NCBI GenBank assembly: GCA_963740355.1 | Contig: CAVUDW010000002.1 | Coordinates: forward strand, 1,440,001 to 1,504,000 | From: an uncultured Gemmatimonadaceae bacterium | Lineage (GTDB): Bacteria; Gemmatimonadota; Gemmatimonadetes; Gemmatimonadales; Gemmatimonadaceae | DNA length: 64,000 nucleotides | Direction: 5' to 3' | Shown here: piece by piece, positions 21,768 to 30,739 of the stretch | Layout: each line of letters begins with the position of its first letter | Numbering within the stretch: position 1 is the stretch's first letter | Program-made: the position numbers and the translations under genes | The notes under the pieces: model-generated | Told to the model about the DNA's origin: nothing | Database searches by the model: none | The model's input: the letters and a program-made list of their open reading frames with translations, nothing else

Positions 21768-23213
21768 GTGAGCACGTCCGCCGCGAGCAAGACGCCGATG
21801 GTGGCCCGGCTGGTGTCGAAGTTCGGCCCCAGCATCCTGCCGTTTGCCGATGTCGCGACGACGGAACTTCCGTTGCCGCGGCTGTTGCGGCTGGGCCTGT
21901 TGCAGTTCACCGTGGCCCTGGCCACGACGCTCCTCGCGGGCACGCTCAATCGCGTGATGATCGTGGAGCTGAAGATGCCCGCGCTGATCGTGGGCCTGAT
22001 GCTCGCGGTGCCGCTGATCTCGGCGCCGCTGCGGGCCTTGATCGGCTACAAGTCCGATACGCACGTGTCGGTGCTCGGCTGGCGCCGCGTGCCGTACATC
22101 CTGGTTGGGACGATCCTGCAGTTCGGCGGCCTGGCCATCATGCCGATGGCGCTGATCCTGCTCTCGGGCGATTCACACGGGCATCCGGCCATCGGCATCG
22201 GGGCGAGCTTCTTCGCCTTCCTCTGCGTCGGCATGGGTTCGCACATGGTGCAGACGGCTGGCCTGGCGCTGGCGACGGACATCACGCCGGAGAAGGATCA
22301 GCCGCGAGTCGTGGCGCTGTTGTACGTCATGCTGCTGCTCGGCATGGTCGTCTCTAGCCTCGGCTACGGCGCCGCGCTGCGCAACTTCAACAAGATTCGC
22401 CTGATCCAGGTGATCCAGATGGCTGGCTTCCTCACGATGACGCTCAACATCGTGGCGGCATGGCAGCAGGAAGTTCGCGGCTCGGCCCCGACCAAGGCGC
22501 CGGAGAAGGCCCGTCCGCCGTTCATGGTGGCGTGGCGTGAGTTCGTGCGTGAATGCCCACAGCTGATCCGACTGCTGGTGGCGGTTGGCGTCGGCACCTT
22601 CGCCTTCACCCTGCAGGATGTGCTGCTCGAGCCGTTCGGCGGCCAGGTGCTGAAGCTTGGCGTGGCGGCCACCACATCACTCACTGGTGTGATGGCGATC
22701 GGTGCCATCGTCAGCTTCGCGCTGGCGCAGCGACGTGCCTCACAGGGTGCTGATCCAATCCGGCTCTGCGCGGTTGGTGCCCTCGTCGGCGTGGCGGGAT
22801 TTGCGCTGATCATCATGTCCTCGCCGCTGCTGTCCCCGGCGCTGCTGATGTCCGGCGCGCTGCTGATCGGCTTCGGCAATGGCTTGTTCAGCGTCGGCAC
22901 TCTGCTGCGGGTGATGTCGCTGCCGCATCATGGCGAACATGGGCTTGCCCTGGGCGCGTGGGGCGCGGTGCAAGCCACGTCGGCTGGCGTCGCCATGGCC
23001 GTTGCTGGATTCATCCGCGACTACTTCTCGGCCGGTGCGCTGAATCGATCGTCGCAGCTTGCAGATCCGTTTCCCGGCTTTGGGTACGTCGCGACGTATC
23101 TGGTGGCGGTGATTGGATTGTTCGTTTTGTTGGTGGTGCTTGGTCCGCTCACGGCGAGACGCCGCGCGGACGTGGTGCCGATGCCGTTTGGTATCGCCGA
23201 GTTCCCGGCGTAG
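21768..23213 (+). CDS. lhaA: LH1 assembly factor LhaA (PucC family)
   Basis: [47 protein letters not shown] and [10 protein letters not shown]; upstream of puhA. Confidence 0.93.
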
Positions 23214-23265
23214 GCCTGTTCAGCAGTCGGATTTCGTTGCAGTCCCTCACATGGAAGGAGTAGTC

Positions 23266-23475
23266 ATGTTCAGGAATTTCACGCCGTACATCGACGTCAC
23301 ACAGATGGTGCTGTACGCGTTCTGGTTCGGGTTCTTCGGCCTGATCCTGTATCTCCGTCGTGAGGACAAGCGCGAAGGGTATCCGCTGGTGTCGAACGAC
23401 CCGAATCGCCTGCATCAGGGCTACCCGGCATACCCCGGGCCGAAGGAGTTCATCCCCACCCACCCGGAGCACTAG
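23266..23475 (+). CDS. puhA: reaction centre H subunit, transmembrane part (Ht), 69 aa
   Basis: [39 protein letters not shown] ribosome-binding site. Confidence 0.9.
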
Positions 23476-23478
23476 TCC

Positions 23479-24069
23479 ATGTCAGAAGTCATCATTCCGA
23501 AGTACGAGGTTCCGAAGAACGCGAGGCCGGTGGATTCGAACTTCGGTGCCCCGCTGGAACCGATCGGAAACCCGTTGACGGCTGGTATCGGGCCAGGCGC
23601 CTGGGCCGATCGCGCCGACCGTCCGGACCTCACGATCAAGGGAATTCCGCGCATCGTGCCGATGCGTGTGGCGACGGACTTCTTCGTTGCCCATCAGGAT
23701 CCCGATCCACGTGGCCTGGAAGTCCGCGGCATGGATGGAGCCGTCGGCGGCAAGGTCGTGGATCTGTGGGTCGATCGCAGCGAGCCGTGCCTGCGCTACG
23801 TGGAGGTGGAAGTGACTGGTGGTGGTCGTCGCCTGGTGCCGGTGCCGTTCATGCGCATCCCGCGTCCCGCGAACTGGTTCCCGTTCATGAACGACGGTCC
23901 GCAAGCCTCCCACGTGCAGATCGATGTGTTGAAGGGTGCTGACTTCGCCGGCATTCCGGAAACCAAGTCACCCGATCTCGTCACCCTGCTCGAAGAGGAC
24001 AAGATCAGCGCGTACTTCGGCGCCGGATCGCTCTGGAACTCCGAGCTTCGCTTCGGCCCACTGGTGTGA
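23479..24069 (+). CDS. puhA: reaction centre H subunit, cytoplasmic PRC-barrel part (Hc)
   Basis: PIGNPLTAGIGPGAW, DPDPRGL, DLWVDRSE..RYVEV and TLLEEDKISAYFGAG. Confidence 0.92.
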   Translation: MSEVIIPKYEVPKNARPVDSNFGAPLEPIGNPLTAGIGPGAWADRADRPDLTIKGIPRIVPMRVATDFFVAHQDPDPRGLEVRGMDGAVGGKVVDLWVDRSEPCLRYVEVEVTGGGRRLVPVPFMRIPRPANWFPFMNDGPQASHVQIDVLKGADFAGIPETKSPDLVTLLEEDKISAYFGAGSLWNSELRFGPLV

Positions 24070-26697: not shown

Positions 26698-27870
26698 TTA
26701 CGGCGTCGAGCGGGCGGGCACCTGGGTCGCTGCGGGCATCGCAGCGGCGGGTGTGGTTCCCATCGCAACTTCGACTCCGGCTGCATTCGCCTTCATCGGC
26801 GCGACACTCAGCTTGGCGCCGACAGGCGTCGGCACCGGGGCGGTGAGTGGGGCACCGTCGTAGAGCGGCTTGCCACTGGCATCGAGCGGGCCAGTGGTCG
26901 CATCCCAGCCAGGAGCGCCCCAGAGAGCAGGGTAGTCCTTGACCATCTTCGCGCCATACAGCGGCTTGTAGATGCCGTTGTGACACGTGACGCACTGCGC
27001 CTTGGGAGCATCACCATGCTCGCCGAGACGACTGCGGGGATACACAGGCTGCAGCGGGTTCAGGTAGTTCATGTTCATGTCGCGGAGCATGGCCGATCCG
27101 TAGAGCGCCACCACGCGCTTCGGTGTCGACTCTTCCCATGACCCCATCGCGCGCGTGTTGTGACAGTACGTGCAGTTCACACCGAGCGCCTTGGACTGCG
27201 TGACCATCAGGGCGTAGGTGTTGTACGTCTGCCGGATCGACGTGCGATTGGCTGCGGCGCCCGGCAGCGGTTCCACCGTGTGGCTCTGCACACGGATGTC
27301 GTCGCGGTCGAGGTAGTGCCGCAGGATCTGGTTTTCGTTGCTGTAGAACCAGAGGCCATTCGGCAACGGCTGCCCGCGATGACAGGTGTAGCACGTGACA
27401 CCGGTGCCAGCTACATGTTGCGTGTAGTCGCTGTTGATGCGCTGCGTCATGCGGAGCATCATGCGAGCCACCAGCTTCGTGTAGATCGGCTGACCCTTGT
27501 TGGAGTCAGCCGCGAAGTTCGCGGTGTTGTGGCAGTAGGCGCAGTTTCCTGCGCCGCCGGCCACCCAGGAGCTCATGGCCGTCATCGTGCGCCCGAACTC
27601 GGCGGCGCTGATGTTGGTGAGCACCTGCACGTTCTTGTACTGTCCCATCGGGCCAGGCGGAGCCGGCGGAAGCGGTTTCGGAGCCTGGTTGTACGCCGCC
27701 GTCTTGGCGATGTCATCCGGGTCGTAGTTCGTTTCCATGGCGACGCCGCGGAAGCCGTGCTGGGCGATCTGCTTCGGTCCCGGCTTGAGGACATCCGGTG
27801 ACTTCTTGCAGGCGCCCAGCGCCACCAGCGAGAGCAGTGCACCGATGCGCACAGTGTGACGTGTGATCAT
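26698..27870 (-). CDS. pufC: tetraheme reaction-centre cytochrome c subunit (lipoprotein)
   Basis: Four heme motifs CAYCH, CYTCH, CTYCH and CVTCH; lipobox LGAC; KPLYGA. Confidence 0.95.
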
Positions 27871-29381
27871 GGTGTCGTCTCCGCTGGCAGTACGACCTTG
27901 CCTTCGCTGGCGATCTCGACGCGGCGGTTGCGGCGACGGCCTTCCGGTGTGTCGTTCGACACCGAGGGCTTGGTCTGTCCGAATCCGCGCGACTTGATGC
28001 GGTCTGCGGCGATGCCGTACTTGGTGGTGAGCATGTCGCGCACACGATCTGCACGACCTTGCGACAGCGTGAGGTTCGCCGTCGGGTCGCCGACATTGTC
28101 GGTGTGACCCTGCACCTCGACCTTGAGCGTCGGGTACTTCGTCATCAGGGCACCGAGGTTGGCCAGCTCGGCATCCGACTCGCCGCGCAGGGCATCCTTG
28201 CCGGTGTCGAAGTAGACCGCACTCATGATGAACAACCCGTCAGCGTTGAGCGAGTCGCGCATGTTGTCGGTCGACAGCACGGGCTTGTTGAAGACTTCCA
28301 AGTCGCCGGTGAGTTGTGCACCCTGCGGCACGGGGAGCTGCTGCGGCACCAACCGGCCGTTGGCATCCCGCATCATGCCCGGGAAGCTGTCCGGCGCCAC
28401 GCCCATGTACTGGCCGCGGAGGTACGGAGCCTGCTCTGCCTTCACTTCGTACTGCACCGGGTAACTCGGTGCCACGCCGTGCTTCTGTGCCCACAGGAAC
28501 CAGTTGTCGACGGCCGTCCCGGTCAGGAGAATGCCGATGCCACCGGTCAGTGTGGTCAGGGTCGCGAACCAGAATGCCCAGCGATGGATGGATTCCGTGG
28601 TGGCGTTGAAACCCATCGTCCAGCGCCAGAACAATCCCATGCGTTCGCCGGCGGTGCCACGATCCGTGATCTGTTCGATTTCGCGTTCCGCGCCGTAGCG
28701 ACTGGCGGCAAGGACTGTCGCCGCGTGCATCGCGAAGAGCAGGGCCGAGCCGTAGAGGAACACGATCGAGAGCATGTGGAACGGATTGTAGAACAGGTTC
28801 CCGTAGCGAATGGAGAATGACGCCGTCCAGTCGAGGTGCGGGAAGATTCCGAACGGCACCGCTTCCGACCAGCTGCCGACCATGATCGGGCGAATGAAGC
28901 CCAACACCAGGTAGAGCCAGATGGCTGACGCGAAGGCCCAGACGATGTGTGAACCCATGCCCAGCGCACGTGTGCGCTGATACATGCGGACCCACCAGAG
29001 CAGGATCGCGAGCGTGAGGAAGAAGCCGGCCAGCAACCACCAGCCACCCTGATTGAGCGGCGGAATGTGCAAGCCGTACTTCGGTGCCGGCGGTTCGAGC
29101 GAGAGCCACGGCAGTTGGCGAATGAACTGGATGGGACTCCAGCCCACGGACCGCCACATGTTGAGCCCGATGATCTCGAACGCGATGAAGCCGAAAATCA
29201 GCGAGAAGACGCCGGTGGTGCCGAGGTAGATCGGCCCAATCTGCGCATCGCCGAACTTGCCGGCCCAGTAGTTGAGAATCGGCTTGCCGTCGCGACCCCA
29301 GGTGCCACCGCGGAGCGGCACACCTTCGTCGACGGGTGCGTGCACCTGCACGCGGGTCCAGAGGTTCTGATATTCAATCAT
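27867..29381 (-). CDS. pufM: reaction centre M subunit fused to a C-terminal OmpA-like domain (504 aa)
   Basis: [46 protein letters not shown] and ESIHRW; residues ~386-490 read [34 protein letters not shown]. Confidence 0.97.
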
Positions 29382-29387
29382 TCGACA

Positions 29388-30218
29388 TTACCTCGGGGCC
29401 CAGAAGGGCAGGTAGAGCCACCAGTTCCACCAATCCTGCCAGCCGCGCGTCCAGAACGGACCGCTGAGGAGGATGCAGACGGCGCTCCAGAAGCCCGCAT
29501 TGAGGGCGAGGAAGAGGCCGAGACGGTGAATACCGATTGCGCCGATGGAGTAACCCACGGCGTCGCGGAAGAACGAGTTTTCATGTTCGCTCGTCTTCAC
29601 CGCTTCACCCTTCGGCGGCGCCGTCACTGACAGGATCAGTGAACCGTGCATCGCGAGGGCGAGGTTGTTGGTGAAGAAGAACGTGATCGCCAGCATGTGC
29701 GCCGGGTTGTAATGGAAGTGCTGGAACTGATAGCCGACGTTCGACACCCAGTCGAGATGACTGAGAATGCCGTACGGGAAGCCATGGCCCCATGCACCCA
29801 GCAACACCGGGCGGATGATGACGAGGGAGATGTACGCGAACACCGCGACGGAGTACGCCACGGGGACATGGTAGCCCATGCCCAGTTTGCGGCTGATTTC
29901 AGCCTGGCGCAGCACCCAGGCCACGAAGGCCACGGTCGCGCACATGGTGATGATCTGCCAGAGTCCGCCATCTCGCAGCGGCGCGAGGCGCAGCCCGTAA
30001 CTCAGGTCGGGCGGGGCGATATTGATCTGCCAGAGATTCCAGGTGGGGCCGATCGCTGCGCCATAGACGCAGAGGGCGGTCCCGAGTACTGCTGCAAACG
30101 CCGCCACCACGCCGAAAAATCCGACGTAGAACGGGCCAATCCAGAAATCGAACAAGTCACCGCCGAGGAGGGTGCCGCCTCGCACGCGATACTTGTATTC
30201 GAAGGACATCATCGCCAT
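29388..30218 (-). CDS. pufL: reaction centre L subunit
   Basis: [42 protein letters not shown] and GIHRLG. Confidence 0.98.
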
Positions 30219-30333: not shown

Positions 30334-30528
30334 TTACTTGCTGGCCGGCATCGGGGTGAGCGCGTCTGCCGTCGACACCTTGGCTGCGTTCCCATCAGGA
30401 TCGAGCCAGTTGTAGCGTGTGGTGCTGAGCAGAATGAAGTGGATGACCAGCGCCAACGCGAACATGAACGCGAAGATGCCGACCATCAAACGCCGGGGGT
30501 CGAAGCCCTGCCACATTTTATAAAGCAT
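30334..30528 (-). CDS. pufA: LH1 alpha subunit
   Basis: [10 protein letters not shown]...[17 protein letters not shown]. Confidence 0.95.
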
Positions 30529-30538
30529 GGGTTTCTCC

Positions 30539-30739
30539 TCAGCTCAGGAAGCGGGTGGCGTGGTGCGCGGCGTCCATCAACTGTGCAGCTCCATAGGAGA
30601 GCGGCTTGCCGAGCCACGGGCGCCACTGCCAGCACAGGTAGTGCGCAATAGCGGCGAAGAACGCGAAGCCTACAAACGTCAGCATTGCCAACGAATGCAC
30701 GCCACGTGCTTCTTCGTCTGTCATCGGGGGCTTATCCAT
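30539..30739 (-). CDS. pufB: LH1 beta subunit
   Basis: [10 protein letters not shown]...[17 protein letters not shown] upstream of ATG 30739. Confidence 0.93.

Follow-up and report, generated by a model that had tools for sequence, protein, structure and literature searches.

A reaction-centre M subunit that ends in an OmpA-like domain in Gemmatimonadota, a candidate tether of the photosystem to the cell wall

Introduction

In the stators MotB, PomB and MotS, and in TssL and TagL of type VI secretion, an OmpA-like domain fixes an inner-membrane machine to peptidoglycan; MotB, in addition, dimerises and undergoes a plug-controlled opening. These proteins consist of a membrane anchor, a periplasmic linker and an OmpA-like domain at the C-terminus, and the same general plan is found in the protein described here, the photosynthetic reaction-centre M subunit (PufM) of an uncultured Gemmatimonadaceae bacterium. 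Its gene, pufM, lies on the minus strand of a 64,000-nucleotide stretch of DNA (positions 1,440,001 to 1,504,000 of contig CAVUDW010000002.1, assembly GCA_963740355.1), which was analysed as a whole and is referred to below as the window. MotB and TssL are dedicated anchoring subunits with a single helix, whereas the anchor in the window is the five-helix, cofactor-binding PufM.

A photosystem subunit with such a domain has been described in the cyanobacterium Gloeobacter violaceus, whose PsaB carries a C-terminal OmpA-like extension of 155 amino acids that was detected by mass spectrometry in purified photosystem I (PSI) and was proposed to act as a peptidoglycan anchor (Inoue et al. 2004, FEBS Lett 578:275, as summarized in PMC11565984). 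PsaB resembles the window PufM in that it is a core reaction-centre subunit of photosystems situated in the cytoplasmic membrane and bears its OmpA-like domain at a C-terminus that is, or for PufM should be, periplasmic; the two domains are homologous. It differs in that its reaction centre is of type 1, its host is a cyanobacterium and its fusion is an independent one.

Fusions of PufM itself have also appeared in print. Table S2 of a recent paper (PMC12650329; Biomolecules 2025;15(11):1529; bioRxiv 10.1101/2025.09.22.677880) contains three PufM entries with the domain combination PF00124|PF00691, all from Gemmatimonadota, two of which are 504-residue proteins assigned to 'Gemmatimonadaceae bacterium'. 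That paper devotes three sentences to the fusion, which go no further than a domain that 'may function in photosynthesis' and do not exclude wrong gene models, and its main text mentions neither peptidoglycan nor Gloeobacter nor Gemmatimonadota. Architecture and lineage are the same as in the window, and the printed sequence of the 504-residue proteins has the tail motifs of the window protein and belongs to the same clade; conservation, binding residues, selection, origin and losses were worked out in the present analysis. A literature search for the reaction centre or pufM of Gemmatimonadota in combination with OmpA or peptidoglycan returned nothing relevant, and a search for the terms OmpA and peptidoglycan found no mention of either in the Gemmatimonas photosystem structure papers PMC8849296 and PMC12817894. 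An earlier examination of the DNA from its letters alone (the sequence-only reading), which knew of no description of the fusion, was mistaken in this respect, given the three printed proteins and the wall-anchor idea put forward in 2004 for PsaB.

The M subunits (RC-M) of the cultured Gemmatimonas phototrophica and G. groenlandica (Protein Data Bank (PDB) 7o0u and 9h19) show 69-72% identity to the window protein in the core and share with it the proximal tail YP..LRGRYQGTAPDSFP, a split puhA gene and the same operon. Unlike the window protein, they stop after 60-90 low-complexity residues of tail and have no OmpA domain.

Domain architecture of PufM

The pufM gene occupies 27867..29381 on the minus strand and, as the sequence-only reading had stated, is one uninterrupted frame of 504 codons plus a stop, with no internal stop in its translation. 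It encodes a normal core, a tail and linker of about 60 residues, and a complete OmpA_C-like domain. The core (residues 1-306; 28464..29381) matches Photo_RC (PF00124) at residues 51-303 with 350.8 bits (E 5e-105), as well as TIGR01115, the NCBIfam equivalog model for pufM, at residues 1-305 with 524.8 bits against a cut-off of 364.25, covering model positions 1-305 of 305. Every motif quoted in the sequence-only reading is found in the translation of the gene. Residues H182, H202, H219, E234 and H266, presumably, going by the Rhodobacter sphaeroides numbering, the ligands of bacteriochlorophyll and of the non-haem iron, are present and are invariant in an alignment of 31 fused relatives.

The core continues into a conserved proximal tail (residues 307-335; 28377..28463), recognized by alignment as YP...LRGxYxGxxPDSFP, which is kept in all fused forms and is common to the non-fused RC-M of Gemmatimonas. 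The 367-residue RC-M of G. phototrophica (7o0u_M) aligns with residues 1-343 of the window protein, LRGRYQGTAPDSFP included, and lacks the OmpA domain, which agrees with what the earlier reading had said of that protein. In the alignment the D-S-F of the proximal tail falls on a residue of G. phototrophica RC-M, Ser331, that bears an O-linked glycan in the electron cryo-microscopy (cryo-EM) map (PMC8849296); because of this alignment, the proximal tail most likely sits on the periplasmic surface of the complex. The variable linker that follows (residues 336-366; 28284..28376) is modelled by AlphaFold with low confidence, its predicted local distance difference test score (pLDDT) being below 50, and it is predicted to be disordered. 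The spacing between LRGxY and GHTD depends on the clade and varies from 79 to 106 residues across 58 fused sequences; it is 104 in the window protein.

The linker leads into the OmpA_C-like domain (residues 367-492; 27906..28283). Its Pfam core at residues 390-486 (27924..28214) matches the OmpA model PF00691, whose gathering score is 27.2, over its full length (positions 1-98 of 98) with 69.8 bits (E 2.7e-19), so that the domain is complete, as had been claimed. In the AlphaFold model of the tail alone, block-mean pLDDT values of this domain are mostly 60-91; the full-length model, built from 31 close sequences, has a mean pLDDT of 56, and only its OmpA part is usable because the core was poorly predicted from so few sequences. 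A Foldseek search with the domain model returned 115 PDB matches with E <= 0.001, the best with a probability of 1.00. The best matches were the C-terminal domain of OprF (5u1h) and OmpA of Acinetobacter baumannii (3td3, 3td4 and 3td5), with a root mean square deviation of 1.2 Å over 104 columns and 36-41% identity; the three latter entries are complexes of the OmpA-like domain with glycine, diaminopimelate and the stem pentapeptide. Inner-membrane anchors of the stator and type VI secretion kinds (3s0h, 9ljl, 7bba and 5m38) were also among the matches, at 22-40% identity, and a PDB search with the domain recovered Gloeobacter PsaB (7f4v chain aB, residues 752-869) with an E value of 5.6e-15. 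The profile models of MotB, MotD, MotS and TssL match PufM only from residues ~372-385 to ~490, with scores far under their cut-offs.

Both residues expected of a peptidoglycan-binding OmpA domain are in place, as the sequence-only reading had noted. Asp428 (the D of GHTD; codon 28098..28100) and Arg443 (the R of LSQGRA; codon 28053..28055) are 15 residues apart; in A. baumannii OmpA they align with the Asp of GHTD and the Arg of LSLARA, which we take to be Asp271 and Arg286, likewise 15 apart. Binding of diaminopimelate has been reported for Asp271 and Arg286 (PMC5974059). An xHTD Asp followed 15 residues on by an Arg is found in all 59 of the fused domains collected in this work.

The ratio of nonsynonymous to synonymous substitution rates (dN/dS) was determined within the window's genus from three genomes, among which dS is unsaturated; deeper pairs were saturated and were excluded. 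The core gave 0.035-0.057, the linker 0.055-0.14 and the OmpA domain 0.08-0.19. The domain is therefore maintained coding sequence under purifying selection and not a decaying appendage. A complex prediction from the PufC alignment and the PufM tail alignment scored 0.00 and gave no verdict.

Distribution of the fusion

A protein search of 5.8 billion clusters returned 120 relatives of PufM. Altogether 141 PufM sequences (121 proteins and 20 genome loci) were examined, and 59 of them carry the fusion, including one protein (P0036, with AHTD in place of GHTD) that was counted as fused by eye. Assemblies from JGI, ENA, NCBI and Logan are the origin of the fused relatives, whose identity to the window PufM is 56-94%; where their source is named, it is Gemmatimonadaceae, Gemmatimonadales or Gemmatimonadota. 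Among the 50%-identity representatives, searched with the whole PufM, no further lineage with the fusion was found: the matches were mostly fragments or non-fused PufM, with three fragments (P0345, P0388 and P0425) running from the core into the domain. A search of genome contigs with the tail alignment, whose GHTD pattern is generic, returned 80 loci, 77 of which were ordinary OmpA proteins; a match starting from tail residue 1 was seen for L052, L053 and L056 only.

Two genome samples, each of 401 genomes, allow the frequency of the fusion to be gauged. Across the phylum, 21 genomes had pufM and in 6 of these it was fused. In the order sample, for which a profile built from fused proteins served as the query, pufM was found in 44 genomes and the match spans the OmpA domain in 10 of them: all 5 from the window's genus, 1 of 15 from the genus labelled g9, and one or two each from g20, g39 and g73. 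For the other 34 the match ends near profile position 340-366; seven of these were read, and six proved to have low-complexity tails while one was a fused protein already counted. None of the fused frames contains an internal stop; they are open in 10/10 of the order-sample genomes, the two TGA codons flagged being the genes' own stops at the end of the match. Four sequencing runs compared with the locus yielded short contigs throughout, none of which covers the entire linker; one run (X1), possibly from the source sample, contained near-identical pieces at 27905-28055, 28156-28283 and 28331-28491.

The non-fused PufM proteins of Gemmatimonadota type that were read (loci L011-L018, L020-L027, L132-L136 and L138; proteins P0043-P0111) all end in some 40-170 low-complexity residues, and the proteins reach up to 513 amino acids. 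These tails are D-S/T repeats in Gemmatimonas-like PufM and Pro/Ala/Thr-rich stretches in others. The D-S/T-repeat tails may be heavily glycosylated, since the repeats resemble the D-S-F glycosylation site of G. phototrophica RC-M.

Origin and loss of the domain

Trees of the PufM core were calculated with FastTree (133 cores) and with IQ-TREE (106 cores; 11 near-copies in the window's clade were left out, as were 16 proteobacterial rows), and the two agree. The window's clade holds fused proteins exclusively, whereas a second clade contains 36 fused and 11 non-fused proteins, those of Gemmatimonas type among the latter. The branch separating both fused-bearing clades from the proteobacterial and 37 other non-fused Gemmatimonadota-type rows has a support of 96.9 in the Shimodaira-Hasegawa-like approximate likelihood ratio test (SH-aLRT). 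On this tree the fused state changes at least 8 times; forcing all fused rows to be monophyletic costs 162 log-likelihood units and is rejected by the approximately unbiased test (p-AU 7.8e-6), the group having been defined after the tree was seen, which makes the test a weaker one.

A tree built from the OmpA domains sets the 59 fused ones apart from 22 paralogues of six genomes by one branch, with weak support (SH-aLRT 79, 108 columns). Among the best 120 relatives of the domain, the nearest that are not PufM are OmpA-family proteins of 400-450 amino acids with 46-53% identity, named as Gemmatimonadales, Gemmatimonadaceae, Longimicrobiales or Gemmatimonas. That a proteobacterial donor supplied the domain along with the photosynthesis genes was considered and rejected, as its nearest relatives are Gemmatimonadota proteins. 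The domain search also brought up P0313, a 520-residue cytochrome c oxidase subunit II (COX2_TM and COX2) with an OmpA domain at 404-500 that is 52% identical to the PufM domain, and three giant proteins (P0242-P0244, 1565-1580 amino acids) with an OmpA barrel, which owe their top scores to repeats alone; P0242, the one that was scanned, has seven tandem OmpA_C domains.

With the PufM tree rooted on the proteobacterial rows, the simplest account of these data would be that a host OmpA domain joined PufM once, after the photosynthesis genes had reached Gemmatimonadales, and was thereafter lost at least six times, leaving the short D-S/T-rich or Pro/Ala/Thr-rich tails. Movement of the pufM 3' end between lineages by transfer or conversion is a possible alternative to repeated loss. 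Under the single-gain account the RC-M of cultured Gemmatimonas probably lost its OmpA domain, because it is placed among fused relatives in the PufM tree.

Genomic context

The window is a photosynthesis gene cluster with bchN, B, H, L, M, acsF, lhaA, a split puhA, a phytoene synthase gene, pufBALMC, bchZYXC, crtF and bchD. The puf genes lie on the minus strand in the order pufB-A-L-M-C: pufB (30539..30739) and pufA (30334..30528), which encode the polypeptides of light-harvesting complex 1 (LH1), precede pufL (29388..30218, identified by Pfam), which is directly upstream of pufM. The stop codon of pufM lies within the start of pufC (ATGA at 27867..27870), an overlap that the sequence-only reading had described correctly. 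The tetrahaem cytochrome subunit encoded by pufC (26698..27870) matches CytoC_RC with an E value of 2.5e-98. In the phylum sample pufC directly follows pufM in 21/21 loci and a stop-start overlap is present in 18 of them, as ATGA or GTGA in 17 and as a shifted GTGATG in L018, with none in L014, L020 and L021. Relatives that encode the OmpA domain as a gene of its own, which the sequence-only reading had envisaged, did not turn up: no separate OmpA frame was present within 1.5 kb of pufM in any of 15 non-fused loci.

The PufC of the window has a lipoprotein-type signal (..ALGAC) at its start and, as its tail, a stretch of ~50 Pro/Ala/Thr-rich residues; with the PufM tail, both periplasmic subunits thus have long C-terminal extensions. 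No fusion of PufC to OmpA was found in the phylum among the best 120 relatives of the window PufC, and the long frames flagged near Gemmatimonadota pufC were upstream read-through, without any PufC-OmpA, in all four that were read; nor did one occur among the best 120 relatives of the OmpA domain. Table S4 of PMC12650329 lists an 'OmpA;CytoC_RC' protein right after pufM in seven Burkholderiales neighbourhoods (Rivibacter subsaxonicus, Rhizobacter sp. AJA081-3 and several metagenome-assembled genomes). As in the window, OmpA would there be joined to a periplasmic reaction-centre subunit, one encoded next to pufM; unlike in the window, the subunit is another one and so is the phylum, and the Burkholderiales fusion is probably an independent event. 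PMC12650329 is inconsistent on the position of the OmpA domain in these proteins, which is N-terminal in the text and C-terminal in the legend. If it is N-terminal, the OmpA segment lies between the pufM and pufC cores, as in the window, and is read with the other gene. One PufC fragment (P0164), 91% identical to the window PufC, carries the source name 'Aquincola sp.' (Burkholderiales), whereas the other close relatives are named Gemmatimonadota; it possibly derives from a mis-binned contig.

The split puhA (23113..24069, plus strand) comprises a small transmembrane part within 23113..23475 and a cytoplasmic part at 23479..24069 (PRCH 83-134 and a PRC barrel), and matches the Ht/Hc split described for Gemmatimonas photosystems. 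A second light-harvesting alpha/beta pair, at 918988-919230 (plus strand) of contig C2 of the genome (G000), ~520 kb from the puf operon, matches Pfam LHC with 51.7 and 38.1 bits; the polypeptides that it encodes may belong to an outer antenna ring. The genome itself (5.45 Mb in five contigs, 94.5% complete) has one pufM. It also encodes five further proteins with an OmpA domain, including one Pal-like and one YiaD-like lipoprotein and a barrel OmpA that has thrombospondin repeats, as well as the diaminopimelate epimerase DapF; because of these genes, the host is probably a diderm with a diaminopimelate-type wall.

Discussion

The fusion of PufM to an OmpA-like domain is real, conserved and under selection; it has been noticed in print and never characterised. 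Judging from the sequences, the structural models and the analogous systems, we consider it reasonably likely that the domain binds peptidoglycan non-covalently and thereby tethers each complex of reaction centre (RC) and light-harvesting antenna (RC-LH) to the sacculus. The C-terminus of the M subunit is periplasmic in all solved purple-type reaction centres, and the OmpA domain would for this reason be in the right compartment. From the C-terminus of the PufM core, a segment of ~30 residues would run along the RC on its periplasmic side, followed by a flexible linker of ~30 residues and the OmpA_C-like domain, which would grip the diaminopimelate-containing stem peptide with Asp428 and Arg443. 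The RC-LH complex in the cytoplasmic membrane would thereby be tied to the sacculus in the manner of MotB, PomB and TssL, as was proposed for Gloeobacter PsaB. The outcome could be photosystems that are immobilised and positioned, or a fixed spacing between membrane and wall around the protruding cytochrome; mechanical stabilisation of a very large complex is a further possible gain. We infer from this line of reasoning the periplasmic location of the domain, its binding to peptidoglycan, its retention in the mature complex and a benefit to the cell. As to the interpretation given in the sequence-only reading, its anatomy stands and the anchoring that it proposed finds computational support in the periplasmic C-terminus, the OmpA_C fold, the residue pair kept in 59/59 domains and the purifying selection, whereas its novelty does not hold.

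By analogy, the PufM fusion most probably works like the wall anchors MotB, TssL and Gloeobacter PsaB and is not a member of their families by descent. For PsaB, common descent of the two fusions is not indicated by the sequences, because the type of reaction centre differs and the PufM domain is nearest to OmpA-family proteins of Gemmatimonadota; the two are alike in how they would work, not in family membership. A broader proposition can be put forward tentatively: wall tethering may be a recurrent solution in bacteria with photosystems in the cytoplasmic membrane, reached by separate joins of OmpA to PsaB, to PufM and, according to the published table, to PufC, and in Gemmatimonadales it may be ancestral to the clade of all known fused and Gemmatimonas-type PufM and have been lost there several times.

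Several observations weigh against a tether. At least six lineages, cultured phototrophic Gemmatimonas included, manage without the domain, and any benefit must therefore be conditional; since sister lineages appear to have lost it, the domain would be dispensable for photochemistry. Some fused relatives have a very short linker (79 residues from LRGxY to GHTD, against 104 here), and, since the tetrahaem cytochrome protrudes far into the periplasm, whether the domain reaches the wall depends on the path of the proximal tail. In Gloeobacter the OmpA-like domain of PsaB was not seen in the cryo-EM map (PMC11565984). The PufM domain could be cleaved off after export; the RC-S subunit of G. phototrophica is heavily processed (PMC8849296). 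Finally, no RNA run was listed among the sequencing runs searched for the fusion gene.

The short linker of some clades, which would keep the domain near the surface of the RC, is also what speaks for a different role, in which the OmpA-like domain would belong to the structure of the photosystem, docked on the cytochrome or on the antenna ring and assuming, for instance, part of the clamping done by RC-S in G. phototrophica. The linker itself is conserved in the window's genus, and G. phototrophica holds its RC and LH1 together with extra periplasmic polypeptides (PMC8849296). We nevertheless regard such docking as unlikely, given that the diaminopimelate-binding pair, which the fold as such does not need, is kept in every fused domain over deep divergence, and that the nearest relatives of the domain are ordinary wall-binding OmpA-family proteins of Gemmatimonadota. 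About equally unlikely, in our judgement, is that the fusion merely provides co-expression or a route of export, with the domain being cleaved in the periplasm to act free or separately anchored while the mature RC remains untethered. Precedents for processing exist, as RC-S loses 60% of its length (PMC8849296) and the PufL-PufM fusions of Chloroflexota are reported to end as separate proteins (PMC12650329), and the predicted disorder of the PufM linker fits with cleavage; yet no relative was found to have the domain as a separate gene beside pufM, fusion to a five-helix membrane protein would be an odd way of export given that Sec signals are available, and the Gloeobacter extension was detected in purified PSI (PMC11565984).

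The domain might also bind peptidoglycan and be selected for the sake of the envelope, as a strut between inner membrane and wall that rides on an abundant membrane protein. The cytochrome oxidase subunit II P0313, with its similar C-terminal domain, favours this idea, and implies that the joining of OmpA to bioenergetic membrane proteins is not specific to photosystems. We give it little credence, because genes for photosynthesis, being conditionally expressed, would make a poor general strut, and because the independent fusions to PsaB and (PMC12650329, Table S4) to PufC point to photosystems as the target. An artefact, whether through chimeric assembly, through an overlooked stop or frameshift, or as a neutral fusion in decay, had to be taken seriously since the authors of PMC12650329 could not exclude inaccurate gene models for their three cases. 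Its probability is now negligible: the frame is open in each of the ten fused order-sample genomes, the 59 fused sequences come from assemblies of four sources, dN/dS is well under 1 and the window genome is in only five contigs. It is the one rival that is excluded, as far as sequence data reach.

Neither the existence of the fusion nor the idea of a wall anchor is new. New, as far as the literature search shows, are the proof that the gene models are right, which settles the doubt expressed in print, the extent to which the architecture occurs, the likelihood that it is ancestral and was lost in the model strains, and the recurrent joining of wall-binding domains to subunits of photosystems. 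The cultured model strains lack a feature that is found in about a quarter (10/44) of the sampled pufM-bearing genomes of their order. The hypothesis lends itself to direct testing, given a small and soluble domain, two known key residues and non-fused sister proteins that serve as natural controls. If the domain anchors the complex, a purple-type reaction centre would be fixed to the cell wall, which would bear on how photosystems are positioned, separated and immobilised in bacteria without intracytoplasmic membranes, and on how a horizontally acquired photosystem is fitted into a new envelope. Should tethering moreover prove to be recurrent, the solved double-ring photosystems of cultured Gemmatimonas would represent a derived, untethered state, and in their fused relatives the photosystems would be immobile and ordered in space, perhaps leaving their electron donors a fixed gap in the periplasm.

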